Shown here: positions 37,981-46,839 of the stretch, piece after piece
Layout of the letters: each line of letters opens with the position of its first letter
How positions within the stretch are numbered: position 1 is the stretch's first letter
Assembly (NCBI RefSeq): GCF_963921235.1
Contig: NC_086097.1
Coordinates: forward strand, 151,778,001-151,842,000
Reading direction: 5' to 3'
Length of the DNA: 64,000 nucleotides
Source of the DNA: Mobula hypostoma
Lineage: Eukaryota
The notes under the pieces: generated by a model
Databases searched by the model: none
Seen by the model: the letters and a program-made list of their open reading frames with translations, nothing else
Told to the model about the DNA's origin: nothing
Position numbers and translations under genes: made by a program

Positions 37981-38393
37981 GATTAGATAGATCAATAGAT
38001 AGATAGATAGATATACTTTATTGATCCCGAGGGAAAGTGGGTTTCGTTACAGCTGCACCAACCAAGAATAGAAAATAAATATAGCAATACAAAACCACCA
38101 ACAATCAAACAACAAAATGCAAACTATGCCAGATGGAAAATAAGTCCAGGACCAGTCTATTGGCTCAGGGTGTCTGACCCTCCACGGGAGGAGCTGCAAG
38201 TTTGATGGCCACAGGCAGGAATGACCTCTCGTGCCGCCCAGTGTTGTATCTCGGTGGAATATGGCCAAAGTCCAACAGTAAAAAGTTCAATATCCGGTTT
38301 ACAAACATGTTCCTCGATCGTAATATGACCCGGATTGCACCATCTGTTATTAACCAGAACAGTAAGCGCCCAACTCCTTTACGCTTACAGATT
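37981..38393 (-). mobile_element. Rex1-like LINE 3' end with (CTAT)n tail
   Basis: gatagatagatagatatactttattgatcccgaggg; minus ORF PRYNTGRHERSFLPVAIKL. Confidence 0.75.
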
Positions 38394-38539
38394 AAGTGCA
38401 AAACAGAAGGAACAAACCAACCAAAGGAAAAGCTTCACTCCCATCAAGCTTCAGGTGGAAAAATAATAATCTGCAAGGTGCTGGAATTCTCAAACAAAAA
38501 CAGAACTCAAGCACAAGACCACAAGGCAATACAAACACA

Positions 38540-39355
38540 GGAGACACCGTAGATGCTGTAATCTGGAGGGACTCAGCATAATGAGTACCATCCTGGGGTT
38601 AGGATGGTGGTGGTGGTGGTGGGGGGGTATTGGGGAAAGGAATTGTCAATGCTTTAGGTTGAGGAACTAAAGGTTCGTCCCCAATGAAGCAACAACATCT
38701 CGTATCCCACCTAAGTAGTCTACAAAACAATGGTATTAACACTGATTTTTTCAATTTCAGGTAACACTCATTTTCAGTGTTTCCTCCTGCTCTCTCTCAC
38801 CAAACCCTCTGTCTCCTTACAATCCACCTCCAGTCCTCCATGTCCTATACCCACTTTCAGCGCTCAATCACCCATTTTTGTTTCCCTCCTTTTCCCCATT
38901 CCATTAATCTACTACCCACACATTTCAGCCACCAGGTTTTCCCCTTCCCCCATCTGACCCTGATTTCATCAGCTATTCACCTCTCCTCTAATGATTCTCA
39001 TTATTATCTTGTTCCTCAGATCTCACCACTGGTAGTCCCTTGTGTTCCTGCTGAACATTCTCCAGTAGCTGTTTCCACCTTCACCCTTCGTCCTTCCACC
39101 TTTAATGCCCCCCATCTCTCACCCATCTGCCCTGTTTCCCAGTTTAACACCTCCTCATCTCCTATTTGGCTCAATCTGTGCTGAATCCACCAATTACCCA
39201 ACGTCTGTGATCGCACAAGTCTCCTAACCATTTTATATTGGGTATCTCCCCTCTCCACTCCCAGTTATGATGCAGGGTTTTGACCAGAAATGGTAACAAT
39301 TCCTTTCACTCCACAGATGCTGATTGGCCTGCTGAGACCCTTTAGTAGATTGTTT
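38540..39355. mobile_element. Old Penelope fragment with inverted pLTR arrangement
   Basis: Reverse pLTR 38545-38670; forward EATTSRI/EQHL-like end; UTR; decayed hammerhead ~39260-39300. Confidence 0.6.
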
Positions 39356-41690
39356 GTTGCACAAAAGATGCTGGACTAGGCCACTTAACCCTTCAAATCT
39401 TGACCTACCATTCAGTGTGATCATGACTGTCTGTTTTGGCCTCAGATCCTCTTCATTGCCAGTTCACCATGGCATGCAATTTCCCTCATCATTCAAAAAC
39501 ATACTTTCCTCCGGCTTCTGTGGAAAACCATTTACCATTTTTTTTTCTCTCTCTTGTCACCTGCTGAGTATCTCTAGTATTTTGTTTGTCTTTCAAAATC
39601 TCATTGAAATGCTGGGTAAATCTATTACACCTAGATTGGAAAATGTGTCTGGTGACATTTAATTAATTTTATTATTAGTGGGAGGTAGATTTCTTAGCGA
39701 TGCCCACTTATCGATGATCATTCGCAAGTTCATAGGACAATTTGCAAGCTTCACTTGAGATGCTGATTTCAGAAAATGAGCCACAGTTTACAATAGATAA
39801 TTTTGTGAAGTTCTTCAGTGGGTAACACTGTACAAAACCAGACGGCATCCAGTCACCTTTCACAAAGAAGTGGAAAGGCTGTGAGTGCTTCAAAGGTGGG
39901 GTCCTGCACTAAAGAAAGACATAATATCTGAGTCAGAATACAGTCTGAGCAGCTTAGCCTTTCAAAACACTTCAAGCTAAAGGGTGGCATACAGTTGTGT
40001 GTAGAACTTTACATGGATGGAGAAGAGCTCTATTTCCAATAACAGAAAGTAGATTGATGTGCAAGACACATAAAGAAGGACAAACGAGGACAAGATGCAT
40101 CAATAAGGCAAACTACCAAAGACTGCTGCAAATTAAGAGTTGGTCTTCCAGTGAGGATGAAACTAACATCAAGCTGATACTAGATGTAGCAGAAACAGAC
40201 CATATCAAATCAGGAGGTCACAGTGGAGTTGTGTGGAGGGTTACATGCCACTTTGAAGAACAGGCACCATTTCAGAAAGATAATGAAAAAACATGCTTCA
40301 CAGAGGAGGAAAACCACAGTTCAGTGCTCATCTCTATGAACTGAAACTATTAGCGATTGGATTTGGAAGGAGAGTTCATTGATCCAAGTAGCAGGAAGAT
40401 TTTACATCAAAATAAAGTACTTTTCAACAGAAATCATGATGCTGATAAGAACTAGGATTGTTTTTCTTAATCCAACATTGCCTTGAAATATGAGGCTGAA
40501 TTGAGCAGTTGAATTTTTATTCCAGCTCTGATCAGCTGAATCAGCACAGATTGAGGCTTTGTCTACTTTGATTAGTCTCTAATATCTATTTTTTTTTCTC
40601 TTCTCCTTAGTGACAATGGCTGGGTTACAGTTTCATTGACACTACTTTTCTTTGTATGCCTCACCCACATCGGCATTAATCAGATACAAGATGGATTAAT
40701 AATTTCATGTGAACACTGATGGAAATGGCAGCTGCAGCAATTTATGTTTTACAATTTACCTAACGTAGAATCATAGAACACTACAGCAGAGAAGCAGGTT
40801 CTTTGGCCCATTTAGTTAGTGCTGAACCATTAGTTTGTGAAGTCCCATCAACCCACACCTGGACCATAGCCCTCCATACCTCTCTCATCCATGTACCTAG
40901 GTAAACTTCCCTTAAATGTTGCAATCAAATCCGCTTCCACCTCTACCAATGGAAGCTTGCACCTTTTCTGAGTGATGTAGTGTCTCCTTGGGTTTCCTTT
41001 AAATATTTCACCTTTCACTCTGAAACTATAACCTCCAGTTCTAGTCTCACACAACCTCATTGGAAAATACCTTTTTGGATTTACCCTGTCTATACTCCTC
41101 ATAACTTTGTATACTTCTATTAAATCTTCCCTCATTCTCCTATGCTGTAGAGAATAAAGTCTGAATCTATTCAAACTTGAAGTCTTAAAATCCTATAGAA
41201 TTTTTCAAGAGAGCTACCAGGAAAGTGGATGAAGGCAAGGCAGTGGGTGCTGTATACATGGACTTTAGTAAGGCACTTCACAAAGTCCCACATGGGAACT
41301 TGGTCAAGAAAGTTCAGGTGCTCAGCATTGAGGAATAGATAGTAAATTAGATTAGACATTGGCTTTGTGGGCGAAGCCAACAAGTGGTAGTAGATGGTTG
41401 CACCTCTGACTTGAGGCCTGTGACTGGTGGTGTGCCCCAGGGATTGGTGCTGGGTCCTTCGTTGTTTGTCATCTATATCAATGATCTGGATGATGATATG
41501 GTTAATTGGATTAGCAGTTTGGGGGTGGCACCAAGATTGGGGGTGTAATGGACAGTGAAGAAGGCGATCATGGCTTGCAGAGAGATCTGTATCAGCTGGA
41601 AAAATGGGCTGAAAAATGACGGATGGAATTTAATACAAACAAGTACAAAGTTTTGCACTTTGGTAGAACCAAACAGGGTAGGTTTTACAT

Positions 41691-42253
41691 GTGTGTTCGT
41701 CCATCATCAACGTCGATGAGGACCTCAGCACCATTATGATGGTGTTGAGACTAGCACGTGATTTGGATTTAAGTGAGGGAGAGTTGCGCAGCGTCAGCCT
41801 CACTCTCTCCTCCCAATTCCCATCTGGATCCAGTGACAAGACAGAGTTGAGACGGCTGGGGATGGGACTAGGTGCAGTGGATGACCAGGTCATCTTCTGT
41901 GTCTTGTCCTGCTCTACACATTCCACAACACTTGCAGAGACCGCCTTCTTGACCATTGGACCTTCCATTGGTCTCGTCCGCTCAATCCGCCGGAGTCTGT
42001 TATCACATGCTGGGATCGACAACTCCCTATCTCACCAAGGGTTTGAGCACCATCAGCTACCCTCACCTGGTTTAGCCGGCTTGTCAAAGCCATTGCCTGG
42101 GGTGTGGCCGCTGTCGCATGCAAACAGCTACGGGGAACCACAGGTGAGAGCTGAGTGCCAGGTGGGGACCAAAAGTGGACAAACCGCCTTGAAAAGGATG
42201 CAACATGTTCCCCCACCAGAGGTGCTACCCCTCCCTGACACCCCATACACCCC
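41691..42253 (-). mobile_element. 563-bp non-coding RTE-like retroposon (5'-UTR-derived) with ~11-bp TSD
   Basis: TSD aggttttacat (41680-41690) / aggttttgcat (42254-42264); host CR1 is collinear across it; minus-strand 3' end tcctcatcgacgttgatgatggacgaacacac resembles RTE tails. Confidence 0.8.
42052..42253 (-). ncRNA. Candidate HDV-like self-cleaving ribozyme at the element 5' end
   Basis: Minus strand: P1 GGGGTGT/ACACCCC; P2 CTCACCTG/CAGGTGAG; P3 GGT/GCC; L3 starts TCC; AG-GCAA; P4 GGCTT-tgac-AAGCC; J4/2 GGCTAA. Confidence 0.55.
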
Positions 42254-44389
42254 AGGTTTTGCATAGTGAACAGTAGGGCACTGAAGTGTGTGGTAGAACA
42301 AAGGGATTTGAGAATACTGATACAAAATCTGTTGGAAGTGGCATCACAGGTAGACAGATTCATAAAGAAAGCTTTTGGCGCATTGGCCTTCAAAAATCAA
42401 CATATTGAGTCCAGGAGATGGAATGTTAGGTTGAAATAGCCTTAAGACGTTGGTGGGGCCTAATTTGGAGTATTGAGTGCAGTTTTGGTCACCTACCTAC
42501 AGGAAAGATGTAAATAAGGTTGAAGGAGTGCAGGGAAAATTTACAAAGATGTTGCTGGTTCTGGAGGACACGAGTTATAAGGAAAGATTGAATAGGTTAG
42601 GACTATATTCTTTAGAATGTAGAAGAATGAGAGGAGATTTGATAGAGGTATATAAAATTATGAAGGCTATATATAGGGAAAATACAAGCAGGGTTTTTTC
42701 ACTGAGGTTGGGTGGGACTACAACTAGATTTCATGGGTTAAGGGTGAAAGTTGAGAAGTTTAAGAGGAAAATCAGGTGAAATTTCTTCACTCAGAGGGCC
42801 GTGAGAGTGTGGAATGAGCTGCCAGCACGAGTGCTGCATGCGAGCTTGATTTCAATGTTTAAGCACAGTTTGGATAGGTATGTGGATAGTGGGGATGGTC
42901 CCCATGCAGGTTGATGGGAGTAGGCAGTTTCAATGGTTTTGCCATAGACTAGATGGGCTGAAGGGTCTGTTTCTGTGCTGCACTTCTCTATGACTATGAC
43001 TCTATAACCTTCCCCTATGATTCAGGTCCTCAAGTCCTGGTAACATCCTTGTAAATTTTCTCTGTACGCTTTCAACTTATTGATATCTTTCCTGTAGATA
43101 AGTGACCAGAACTGCATACCAAATTTCATTTCACCAACGTCTTGTACAACTTCAACATAACACCCCAACTCCTATACTCAACACTTCTATTAATGAAAGT
43201 TAATGTGCTAAAATCTCTCTTCCCAATTCTATCTACCTGTGATGCCATTGTCAAGGAACTGTAGCACAATATTCTCAGATCCCCCTGTTCTACTGCACTC
43301 CTCAGTGCCTACCATTCACTGTGAAAGTCCTACCCTAGTTTGTCCTCTCAAAGTGCAATACCTCACACTTACTGTATCTGCATTAAATCCTATCTGCCAA
43401 TTCCTAGCCCATTTTTCCAGCTTCTCCAGATTCCACTATAAGCTTTGATAGCTGTACTATATAGCCTACTGTCTCACTGTTCACTATGCTGCCAGTCTTG
43501 GTGCCATCTGCAAATTTGCTGATCCAGCTTCTAATATTATCATCCAGATCATTAATATAGATGACAAACAGATCCCTGTGGCTTACCACTGGTCACAGGC
43601 CTCCAGATGGAGAAGCAATCATCTACTTTCACTCTCTGGCTCTCCTGTTAAGCTTATCAGCAAGTTGGTTGCCTCCAGATGCTCTGTACTGACTGTCCCA
43701 ACATATTATTTTATCTTTTATTTCCCATTACATCAGCACCCGAAAAAATTTCTTACTGGCCAATCTTGATCTGCATTCCAACACAGATATTCCACCAGTC
43801 TCTCTAAAACTTAAAACACATTTATTTTTCCCCGTTTTCTATTTCTTATGAAACTAAATAACCTGAAACATTAACTGCTTCTCATCCACAAATATTGCTT
43901 GACCTGCTGAGTACTTTCATTTTATACTTTTATTTTAGATTTCCAACACCTGTAACTTTTGCTTCGAATGCTTCTGCAAATATTGAATTGAAGAAAGCAT
44001 TAAATTCAATATTTTAAAATTTCTAATGTACAGTACTTATCTTGAATCTAAATGACTACCTCATCCAGAACGTCAAGTGGCTTAACCATTCTCAGTGGGA
44101 CTTTGTCAAAGTCATTGCTATAGTCCATGTAGACAAATTTCGCTGTCTTTCCTTCATTAACTTTTCTGGAAACCTCCTTGAAAAACTCTAGAAGAATGGT
44201 TAGACATGATCTACTGCACGCATGGCAACATTGACTATCCCTAATCAGGTCCTGTCTATCCAAATACTTATATATCCTGTCCCTTAGAATATCTTCCTAT
44301 CATTTGTCTGACGCCAGGTTCACTGGCCTATAATTTCCTGGCTTGACCTTAATGCATTTCTAGAACAACCAATCAACATTAGCTACCCT

Positions 44390-45205
44390 TCTAATGGTAT
44401 TAGCACTTATGGCATTGATCACAAAACCCTAAACTCAGAAAGAGATCTTAAGCCTTAGCCAATATTGGTATCTACAGGTACCCTCACTATAGGGAGGTTA
44501 TACTGTGAATAGCTACTCTTCGAAGACTAGTTTACTTCCGGGTCTATCCTCTGCAGTGAGATCTAGCTGCCAATATCTGTCTGAATGGTGTGTCCCCCTT
44601 CCTATCTAGGAAGAGATACTTCCAGTTAACAAAGTAGTTTACATGCAGTTTTTTAAATTTTTAATTATACACTTTTAAACTTAGAGAAATAATTCTTCAC
44701 ACATTTCAAACTCACAGAGGATTTCTGATTTACAAACAGTTTGTGAATTACAAAAGATGTATGAACTATGAAGTATTTCGAAACAAGAAAAATTCTTATG
44801 AACTAAAAGAACATACCAATGAGTTTCAGAAAAATGAGTCGTCTAGCACTGAAACTGAAGGTTGAGGAATTAATTCTAGTTCTTCCTTCTGTTATCCTAT
44901 CTTTCTGTCATTCTCCTTGTCATTCTTAACAAACCCCAATGCTTTTTTACGTGCAAATAACTTAGCCAGTGTTGTCTATTTTGATGCAGGCTAATTAACA
45001 TAGCCCCATTGTCTTATATTGATTAAACACAGGCCTACAAGACTGCACTATTTAATTGTTTTCAACGAGAAGCTAAGCAAGGAATATTGATTGGATGTTT
45101 AACTTTAGCACTAACAACTCTGACCCTTTGGAAAGGTCATACTGTTGTGCTGGAAAACAGTGTTTAATAATAAGCCTCGGGTCTTGGAAAGTGAATATCC
45201 AACAC
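44390..45205. other. Unclassified ~0.8-kb insertion inside the CR1 (possibly LTR-derived)
   Basis: CR1 text acattagctaccct… resumes as tcctccagtccttcggcacctcacc; minus strand begins TGTGTTGG; no ORF. Confidence 0.5.
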
Positions 45206-46839
45206 ATCCTCCAGTCCTTCGGCACCTCACCTGTGCTTAAGGATGTTTTACCATAAATACATCTGTCAGGCTCTGGAATTCCTACACTAACCTCCCCACA
45301 AAGTCTGTGGGAACCTTATCTGAGCCCGGGGACTTATCCACACTAACTTGCCTCAAAACAGCAAACATCTTGTTTTCTCTAATCCAGATACAGTCCATGA
45401 CTTCATTGCTGTTTTGCCTCTGTTCTATAGCCCATCTCCCAAGTAAATGTAGTTGCATTAAAAAAAGTCCATTTAAGTTCTCTCCCACCTCTTTTGGCTC
45501 CATGTATAGATGACAATTTTGATCTGCAATGGACTGACTTTGTCCCTTCTTATTCTTTTCATCTTAAAAGATATATGTGAAGCTCATGGTACCTCCTTTG
45601 TCTTCTTTACTAGAGCAATGTTATGCCTTCTTTTAGCCCTCCTGATTTCCCTCTTACACATTCCCTTTCATTTCTTATACACCTCAAGTATCTAACTTTC
45701 TTGTTTATTCATTGCTGCCTTTACCTATTATGCACCTCCTTCTTCTTAACCAGGGCCTCAATTTTCCTTGAAATCCAAAGTTCTCTAAATCTATTAGCAT
45801 TTCCTTTTATTCTAACAGAAGCATACAAACTCTGTAATCTCAATATTTCACTTTTGAAGGCCTCCCTCATACCAAGCATCCCTTTGCCAGAAAACGAACT
45901 ATACCAATCCACACCTGTCAGATCCTTTCTGATGCCATCAAAATTGGCCTTTCTCCAATTTGGAATATGAACCCAAGGATTAGTCCTATCTTTCTGCATA
46001 ATTATCTTGAAACTAATGGAATTATGATTACAAGACCCAAAGTGTAATCCTGCACATACTTCTGCCATCTGCTCAGTCGTGTTCCATAATAAGAGATCCA
46101 GTATCACACACCCTTGAGTAGCGACCTCTGTATATTGATTCAGGATGTTTTCTGGAACACATTTGACAAATTCTTTCCCATCCAACTCTTTTACATTATG
46201 GGAGTCCCAGGCAATATGTGGAAAATTAAAATCGCCTACTATCACAAACTTATTTTTCTTGCAACCATTTGTTACCTCTCTATAAATCTGTTGCTCTAAA
46301 TCCTGCTAATTATTGTGTGGTCTATCATATGATCCCATTAGCATGGTCATCCGTTTCTTATTTCTCAATTCCTCCCATTTAACTTCAGTAGATATGTCTG
46401 AGCTCTACCAGACATTTTCTGTAAAATTTCCCTGACTAGTAATGCCACCTCTCCCCCTCAATCATGCCTAAAACAATGGAACCCCAGAATACAGAGTTGC
46501 TAGTCCTGCTCCTCCTGCAACCAAGTCTCAATAATAGCTACAATATCATAATTCCAAATGTTGATTCATGCTCTAAGCTCATGCATCTGCCTTACTTACA
46601 GATTCTCCTTGCATTAAAATAATCACAACTCAGAACATTCTTCTCACCATGCTCAAGCTTTTCTTTCTTGTCTTTATAGGTAGGCTTAATAGCTACTTTC
46701 TCCACAACTACTCTACTAGTTGTGCTGACACTCTGGTTCACATTCCCCTGCAACTCTAGTTTAACTCCCCTCAGATCAGCACTAGTAAACCTTCCTGCAA
46801 GGATATTGGTTCCTGTCCAATTCAGTTGCAATCTGTCCT

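Follow-up and report, generated by a model that had tools for sequence, protein, structure and literature searches.

The stretch of Mobula hypostoma DNA that we analyzed (the window; 64,000 nucleotides of NC_086097.1) carries on its minus strand a 563-nt element, at 41691..42253, that belongs to a bipartite, non-autonomous RTE family, here called family A. Two 11-nt target-site duplications flank it, the 5' copy at 42254..42264 differing by one mismatch from the 3' copy at 41680..41690. Downstream of the ribozyme-like head lies the remainder of the kept RTE 5' UTR (41750..42059), and the element closes with the RTE 3' terminus and a short (CA)n tail (41691..41723). All of the segments quoted in a previous reading of the letters alone (the sequence-only reading) were found in place on the minus strand. 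That reading assigned no coding role to the element, and this holds for the 111-codon open frame in the kept UTR, which we rejected as coding: it gave no Pfam match above the cut-off, had no longer homologue among 507 candidates, and is not conserved in family B, which has stops in all three forward frames. The host site is older repeat debris (window 40967-44195) with long inverted matches at 71-83%, and may be CR1-like.

Differences from the family majority affect 26.5% of the CpG positions of the window copy and 3.1% of its other positions, in line with the CpG decay that had been proposed for it. The 3' strand of P1.1 reads AG here and GG in 25/30 aligned copies, and the 5' strand of P3 reads GGT in place of the GGC of the family majority. 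By this comparison the AG is evidently decay, and the window copy appears to be a worn dead end, so that any activity would be that of the master copy.

The first 194 nt of the element match an HDV-like ribozyme fold, with P1, P2, P3, P1.1, and P4 in order. The 5' strand of P1, GGGGTGT (42247..42253), opens with G1 at 42253, which is both the element start and the predicted cleavage site; its 3' strand (42105-42099) directly follows that of P3 (42108-42106), the two together occupying 42099..42108. With the P3 5' strand at 42137..42139, the 7-bp P1 opening with G1 and the 3-bp P3 are as expected of HDV-like ribozymes. P2, for which 8 bp had been quoted (42148-42141 with 42069-42062), extends to 10 bp between 42141..42150 and 42060..42069. 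The P1.1 3' strand (AG at 42098-42097) and J1.1/4 span 42093..42098, the P1.1 pairs being C-G and C-A in the window copy and C-G and C-G in the 25/30 copies mentioned above. P4 is a hairpin of 6 bp with a 4-nt loop (42077..42092), with compensatory changes between families. In J4/2 (42072..42076), the pattern G-C-N-A-A, with the putative catalytic C at 42075, recurs in the majorities of families A, B, C, E, and R and in L209 and L210 (N being U, C, or G); this C is kept in at least 14 of 15 aligned rows. We regard this as a well-supported HDV-like ribozyme fold, for which cleavage is predicted.

Between P1 and P2 lies a structured J1/2 domain of 96 nt (42151..42246), whose inner stems covary between lineages. 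Its basal stem, P1.2, pairs 42243-42234 with 42162-42153 over 10 bp. The second GGGGTGT (42244-42238), which had been read as a duplicated P1 strand, lies in the 5' strand region of this closing stem and thus forms the base of the J1/2 domain; no spare P1 is present.

HDV-like ribozymes usually have a short L3, of about 7-8 nt. The whole L3 of the window copy is 28 nt long (42136-42109), and those of families A, B, C, and E and of L209 and L210 measure 26-28 nt, well beyond that length, owing to an insert of 18-21 nt. In the window copy, the 7-nt L3 core (42130..42136) supplies the CC of P1.1 and has a G at loop position 6, its register being that of the 7-nt loop in R, a sister RTE; a 21-nt insert (42109..42129) with hairpin arms at 42128-42124 and 42114-42110 occupies the loop's 3' end. 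In R (6 loci), L3 has 7 nt, with TCCTCGT as the majority; this sister also has a double change at one P2 pair, U-A at two pairs of the P2 base, and GCGAA in J4/2. Since family E has the same seven L3 letters as R followed by a 21-nt insert, the insert is placed after an intact L3 core and before the 3' strand of P3. The L3 hairpin (4 bp in the alignment) is paired in 15/15 rows, with a variable loop. On the simplest reading, it would be old in this lineage, and R either lost it or swapped heads. The unusual L3 hairpin that had been pointed out is thus present and conserved, and is better described as an insert that follows a 7-nt L3 of normal form, found in several RTE lineages and absent from R. 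In the HDV structure, L3 is exposed to solvent at its 3' end; a hairpin placed here would leave the core at that end, being tolerated or binding something outside catalysis. An insert of 18-21 nt beside the active-site loop letters may all the same slow or stop cleavage. In R2, P1.1, P3, and L3 together hold 15 conserved nt, according to the part of PMC3774820 that deals with them. Among the papers listed in our literature searches, none turned up on an HDV ribozyme with an L3 hairpin, though a loop of this kind may already be depicted in the RTE figures of Ruminski 2011 or Webb 2009.

Pairing across the fold was examined in 15 copies from 7 groups (728 cells), of which 91.5% are paired. Double-change cells number 24, against 8.6 in shuffles (0/500 as high) and 1-5 in slid controls; as the rows are related and partly decayed, the shuffle count is to be taken as support and not as a probability. 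The double changes affect all five pairs of the inner J1/2 stem, 2/6 pairs of P4, 1/7 of P1, and 1/5 of P1.2. None fell in P2, P3, P1.1, or the 4-bp L3 hairpin in these 15 rows. P3, P1.1, and the hairpin are nearly invariant, so that the argument for pairing in these three is one of conservation. The covariation anticipated by the sequence-only reading was therefore found in P4, in J1/2, at one P1 pair, and at one P2 pair in R, and was missing from P3, P1.1, and the L3 hairpin.

Family A counts over a thousand copies. Searching the same genome with the element gave 5212 first-look candidates, and 40/40 of those scored were near full length and 93-94% identical (the window copy itself excepted). 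A 19-nt 3' pattern of the family had 1219 exact matches, and its reversed control had none. The first 30 loci picked by this pattern start at position 1 in 17 cases and at positions 1-5 in 22. When 30 loci were picked by the last 101 nt instead, 13 (the window copy among them) start at position 1, 6 at positions 2-13, and the other 11 are truncated at 60-281, 3 of these being one duplicated insertion. A clear target duplication of 7-13 nt is present in 29/38 full-length copies, and it adjoins G1 in 20 of the 29. The clustering of 5' ends at G1 bears out the proposal that the element starts exactly at P1. Variable duplication lengths and 5' truncations are thus accompanied in family A by microsatellite tails of (ACA)n, (CA)n, or (ACCA)n. 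The base preceding G1 is T in 26/38 full-length copies; an extra G precedes G1 in 2/38. Separately, 15 of the 20 duplications adjoining G1 end in T; for RTE target duplications, the section of PMC6007223 concerned places a T at the start and not at the end.

Related heads occur in further families. Families B (357 exact pattern matches) and C (115) have their first ~380 nt in common with family A and carry different tails, while family E (L298-L300) is a further autonomous lineage and L209 and L210 are related heads from other records. The tail of family C (~384-524) is also that of a shorter element with, by eye, a tRNA-like head (21/30 loci, L233-L262), which points to a swap of heads, one of them the ribozyme and the other of Pol III type; ARAGORN found no tRNA in two of these shorter elements, L244 and L256. 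The families appear to be common to related animals, judging from contigs in the runs X19, X20, X21, and X23. These contigs, from four other organisms, cover the ribozyme region, and depth falls at the G1 boundary. Run X13 gave 3 contigs, 2 of which end at 42250 and 42253 with unrelated flank beyond. Of the 24 runs found, 1 is recorded as RNA, in the form of contigs. Among viral contigs, a pattern scan returned 21 loci, none similar to families A-C, and a protein scan found no relative. The protein scan of genome contigs picked out one locus, L319, without a 5' UTR: a bacterial MAG contig made up almost entirely of an RTE from this lineage (85% over the endonuclease part) and likely animal contamination.

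The parent of family A is found in the same genome, and the RTE origin proposed for the element holds. This 4.1-kb LINE (L296) has an open frame of 1109 aa with endonuclease and reverse transcriptase domains (PF03372 and PF00078), matches positions 1-521 of family A at 94.6%, and matches 518-559 with its far end; L307, L308, and L310 show the same two-part match. The window element thus corresponds to the first 521 and the last ~42 nt of the parent, and this two-end match indicates that family A is an internal deletion of the LINE, which joined parent nt 521 to the last ~42 nt at 41733..41736. The predicted ribozyme and its L3 hairpin were inherited from this autonomous parent. The part of the parent UTR missing from family A gave 539 candidates in the same genome, and 8/20 parent loci start at position 1. 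L296 and its relatives in this genome were reached with the endonuclease of L209 as the query. L209 itself came from metagenome contigs, where a pattern scan gave 3 loci; it is complete at 4.1 kb, has a 1109-aa endonuclease-reverse transcriptase frame, and aligns by its 5' end with family A 3-505 at 78.7%. On the basis of the single frame with APE and reverse transcriptase domains and of UTRs of RTE type, the parent is assigned to the RTE clade. The UTR of L296 is, by eye, near-identical to that of the Repbase element RTE-11_PSi, and its 3' end is near-identical to RTE-1_PSi (Kojima supplement); RTE-11_PSi 370-519 differs by eye from family A at ~12/150 positions.

In a quick protein tree, the parent of family A and R form one clade (support 100), with L209 outside it and E deepest on a long branch, the E protein being 47-48% identical to that of L209. 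The nearest protein in this tree is a frog entry, P0074. Family A 357-505 and RTE-11_PSi 370-519 are by eye ~92% identical over non-coding sequence, the latter family being named from another species; together with the frog entry, this likeness points to a possible horizontal transfer.

The element had been described as a protein-free, SINE-like family. It is indeed without an ORF and headed by a predicted ribozyme; given its two-part match to L296, it is evidently a bipartite, internally deleted RTE, a known category and not a new kind of SINE. A SINE-type head (tRNA, 5S, or 7SL) is absent: the head is the RTE 5' UTR, no tRNA was found in L001 and L017, and there was no Rfam match. LTR elements have TG...CA ends and a fixed duplication of 4-6 nt. 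The GGGG start, the microsatellite tail, the 7-13 nt duplications, and the non-LTR parent rule out an LTR element or solo LTR here. RTEs bearing DUF6451 were rejected as the parent, as 48 loci (L131-L178) yielded one 19-nt match (E 0.088) and have other 3' ends, and Vingi was abandoned once the RTE parent was identified. Three of the DUF6451-type elements (L161, L165, and L166) have a conserved, structured-looking 5'-UTR motif ahead of the ORF, which had no Rfam match and may be another self-cleaving motif. In a short bipartite relative (L210:2719-3330, with L211), the element stands directly ahead of a frame that by eye resembles a ubiquitin-specific protease.

The head is not kept everywhere. 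In the main R subfamily, 23/30 loci (L263-L292) have the ribozyme head replaced by spliced-on sequence and have spread all the same: foreign GC-rich sequence is joined at an AG inside the P4 loop in 11 and at a second AG just downstream in 12, the head being kept in 1 and the remaining 6 being truncated or other. The pattern suggests that master copies were spliced onto host exons, with loss of the ribozyme. Spread without the head in R shows that the ribozyme can be dispensed with. Upstream of one replaced head, L275:264-611 reads as methylmalonyl-CoA epimerase (E 1.6e-28 to 3rmu_A; Glyoxalase_4), a piece of host mRNA carried by or fused to an RTE. Another replaced head (L311:344-703) holds a GC-rich frame with no Pfam match, the peptide at the end of which may be that of OTUD5 exon 1.

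We propose that the 5' end of this RTE-derived retroposon folds as an HDV-like ribozyme with an extra hairpin in L3, which probably frees the element RNA before G1. A host read-through transcript would carry the element RNA, and the ribozyme would cleave itself just 5' of G1 and release it, with C42075 acting as the general acid; from the sequence, self-cleavage at this point seems quite likely. The stable J1/2 stem and the long P2 would speed cleavage, as in drz-Agam-2-1. The APE/RT protein of the parent would then copy the released RNA from its 3' end by target-primed reverse transcription, and insertion would leave a duplication of 7-13 nt.

Several other explanations were weighed. That the likeness to HDV arose by chance within an ordinary repeat is barely conceivable. 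The folding energy of the 202 nt is ordinary and no better than that of shuffles (z -0.06, in a model without pseudoknots, where plain folding yields P2, the J1/2 stems, the L3 hairpin, and part of P4), and Rfam gave no HDV-type match in window 38000-46000, in 7 loci, or in L313, L314, and L209. However, Rfam also misses the sister with the canonical loop, so that its silence carries no information. An HDV descriptor, written after the fold was seen and allowing an L3 of up to 40 nt and AG at P1.1, found this element alone on both strands of the 64-kb window and was passed by 0/3000 dinucleotide shuffles of the 202 nt. Together with the covariation, this upholds the HDV-like fold that had been proposed and refutes chance resemblance as far as sequence allows. 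The same descriptor failed on L209, L298, L300, L313, and L314; restricted to GG at P1.1 and to P1 at the start, it was passed by 5/21 near-full-length copies. It accepts both starts (1 and 10) in the window copy, in families A, B, and C, and in L210, and the P1 3' strand can pair with the second G-run as well, as if an active ribozyme cut at 42244 and the nine upstream bases were extra. This is very improbable: 5' ends gather at position 1, not 10; the parent L296 passes from position 1 alone; R has no second G-run; and the second run is already paired in the J1/2 stem. Moreover, a double change in L209 (G-C to U-A) falls on the first G-run, which argues that G1, not G10, opens P1. In R, the first P1 pair may be A-U or G-U, the P1 evidence in this family coming from 2/6 copies.

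A different view is that the head is a relic, the L3 insert having abolished or crippled cleavage, and that its structure now serves as an internal promoter, a 5'-end shield, or a protein-binding module, with transcription from G1. We consider this improbable. An internal promoter starting at G1 would gather 5' ends there too, and the spread of R copies without the head is compatible with such a role. Yet the putative catalytic C and the AA that follows it are kept across seven groups while their neighbours vary, P1 stays paired through a double change, and the L3 core is in register with the canonical loop. In L1, the cap might leave an extra G before the first base; such a G is rare ahead of G1 (the 2/38 copies noted above). 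In favor of a relic, L3 is part of the catalytic core, as the part of PMC4908430 concerned has it, and the L1Tc ribozyme sequence doubles as an internal promoter in the relevant parts of PMC4035085 and PMC3383444.

The self-cleaving fold is not the only paired structure predicted in this element. An 11-bp hairpin spans the deletion junction, which falls in its loop, between the 5'-UTR box (41739..41749) and its predicted partner, the 3'-UTR box (41724..41734), which follows the stop codon in the parent; in the parent, these arms are 3.5 kb apart. In L209, L210, R, and E, the sequences at the equivalent anchored places are different ones, each again matching the 3' box of its own element; in the short element L210, the boxes are 62 nt apart. 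We infer an end-to-end helix in the parent RNA that bipartite elements must keep: the 5'-UTR and 3'-UTR boxes would pair with each other over 3.5 kb, and exactly the part that would be looped out is what the deletion took, the helix being kept. Its job would be template recognition, which is a guess. Among the Kojima sequences, the same pair of boxes is retained by WALLSI1/1A/2 and MAR4_MD. By eye, RTE-3_AMi and RTE-1_PSi each have two 9-nt boxes complementary to each other, and both strands are changed between these two elements (entries of the Kojima supplement). Among the papers listed in our literature searches, none turned up on end-to-end pairing in RTE elements.

Alternatively, the complementarity at the junction is incidental or a by-product of element copying, with no selected helix, which we consider unlikely. 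The helices have 9-14 bp only, and the anchors of the boxes were chosen after the first cases were seen; with these anchors, at most 9/2000 shuffles pair as well in 6/8 copies, L293 and L300 being weak. An unanchored search for the best helix over the whole UTR found 0 to 140 of 200 shuffles as good, the result being clear for L304 only. Against an incidental origin, three clearly different box sequences (that of the A parent, that of E, and that of the L209, L210, and R group, with variants) each match their own 3' box; there is no better-pairing window elsewhere in 4/8 copies, and there are 2 and 7 of ~4000 in two others; and the change between RTE-3_AMi and RTE-1_PSi is two-sided.

The wider reading, that a widespread RTE lineage carries both an active, undescribed class of HDV-like ribozymes with a helix in L3 and an RNA looped by a helix between its 5' and 3' UTRs as a signal for the RTE protein, is put forward as a tentative possibility that we would not yet favor. 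If true, the looping helix would account for the part of the 5' UTR that RTE parasites always retain along with the 3' end, and for the need for both UTRs in templates for RTE gene writing. Kojima 2018 (PMC5786205), in the passage on this subject, leaves the question of why few LINE clades yield bipartite parasites at "for unknown reasons"; a covarying helix between the UTRs is a possible and testable answer. It also bears on RTE-based gene writers, whose templates are described with both UTRs in the excerpt of PMC13708176. As for the ribozyme, if family A cleaves, then a natural helix can be accommodated in L3, a core loop regarded as short and fixed, and an entire lineage of RTE ribozymes escapes searches that hold L3 to 7-8 nt. 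The sister element with the plain loop offers a natural control for the insert.

Both bipartite non-autonomous RTE derivatives (Kojima 2018, PMC5786205) and RTE ribozymes (PMC6765202 and PMC5786205) are established, going by the portions of these papers devoted to them. RTESINE1/2, WALLSI3, MAR4_MD, and RTE-N2_Lch resemble family A in joining an RTE 5' end to the extreme 3' end without an ORF and with a microsatellite tail, and the UTR that the Kojima elements retain is of the same sequence family. In contrast, family A comes from another genome, and the sections of PMC5786205 on these elements name no ribozyme structure for them and mention no pairing of the two parts; four ribozyme sequence words had no match in the Kojima supplement. 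R2 SIDEs and the trypanosome elements NARTc and RIME are likewise internally deleted, ribozyme-headed, protein-free, and moved by a parent LINE; they belong to other clades, the SIDEs are rDNA-specific, and no L3 insert is noted in the corresponding parts of PMC3774820 and PMC4035085. The HDV-like ribozymes that head the non-LTR elements R2, R4, RTE, Ingi/L1Tc, R1, and LOA (Ruminski 2011, as cited in the relevant sections of PMC6765202 and PMC5786205; for R2, PMC3774820) share with family A the order P1-P2-P3-P1.1-P4, a long J1/2, the C in J4/2, and a start at the first base, whereas family A differs by its L3 of 26-28 nt, lengthened through the hairpin insert. Similarly, in drz-Agam-2-1 (Webb 2016), a stable stem closes a large J1/2 and P2 is extended (12 bp, versus 10-11 here), features that strongly raise the rate; the account of it in the pertinent part of PMC4908430 describes no L3 insert, and no sequence match was obtained through Rfam. 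Measured against these systems, the element class appears ordinary, and what sets family A apart is the conserved L3 insert within an HDV-like fold.
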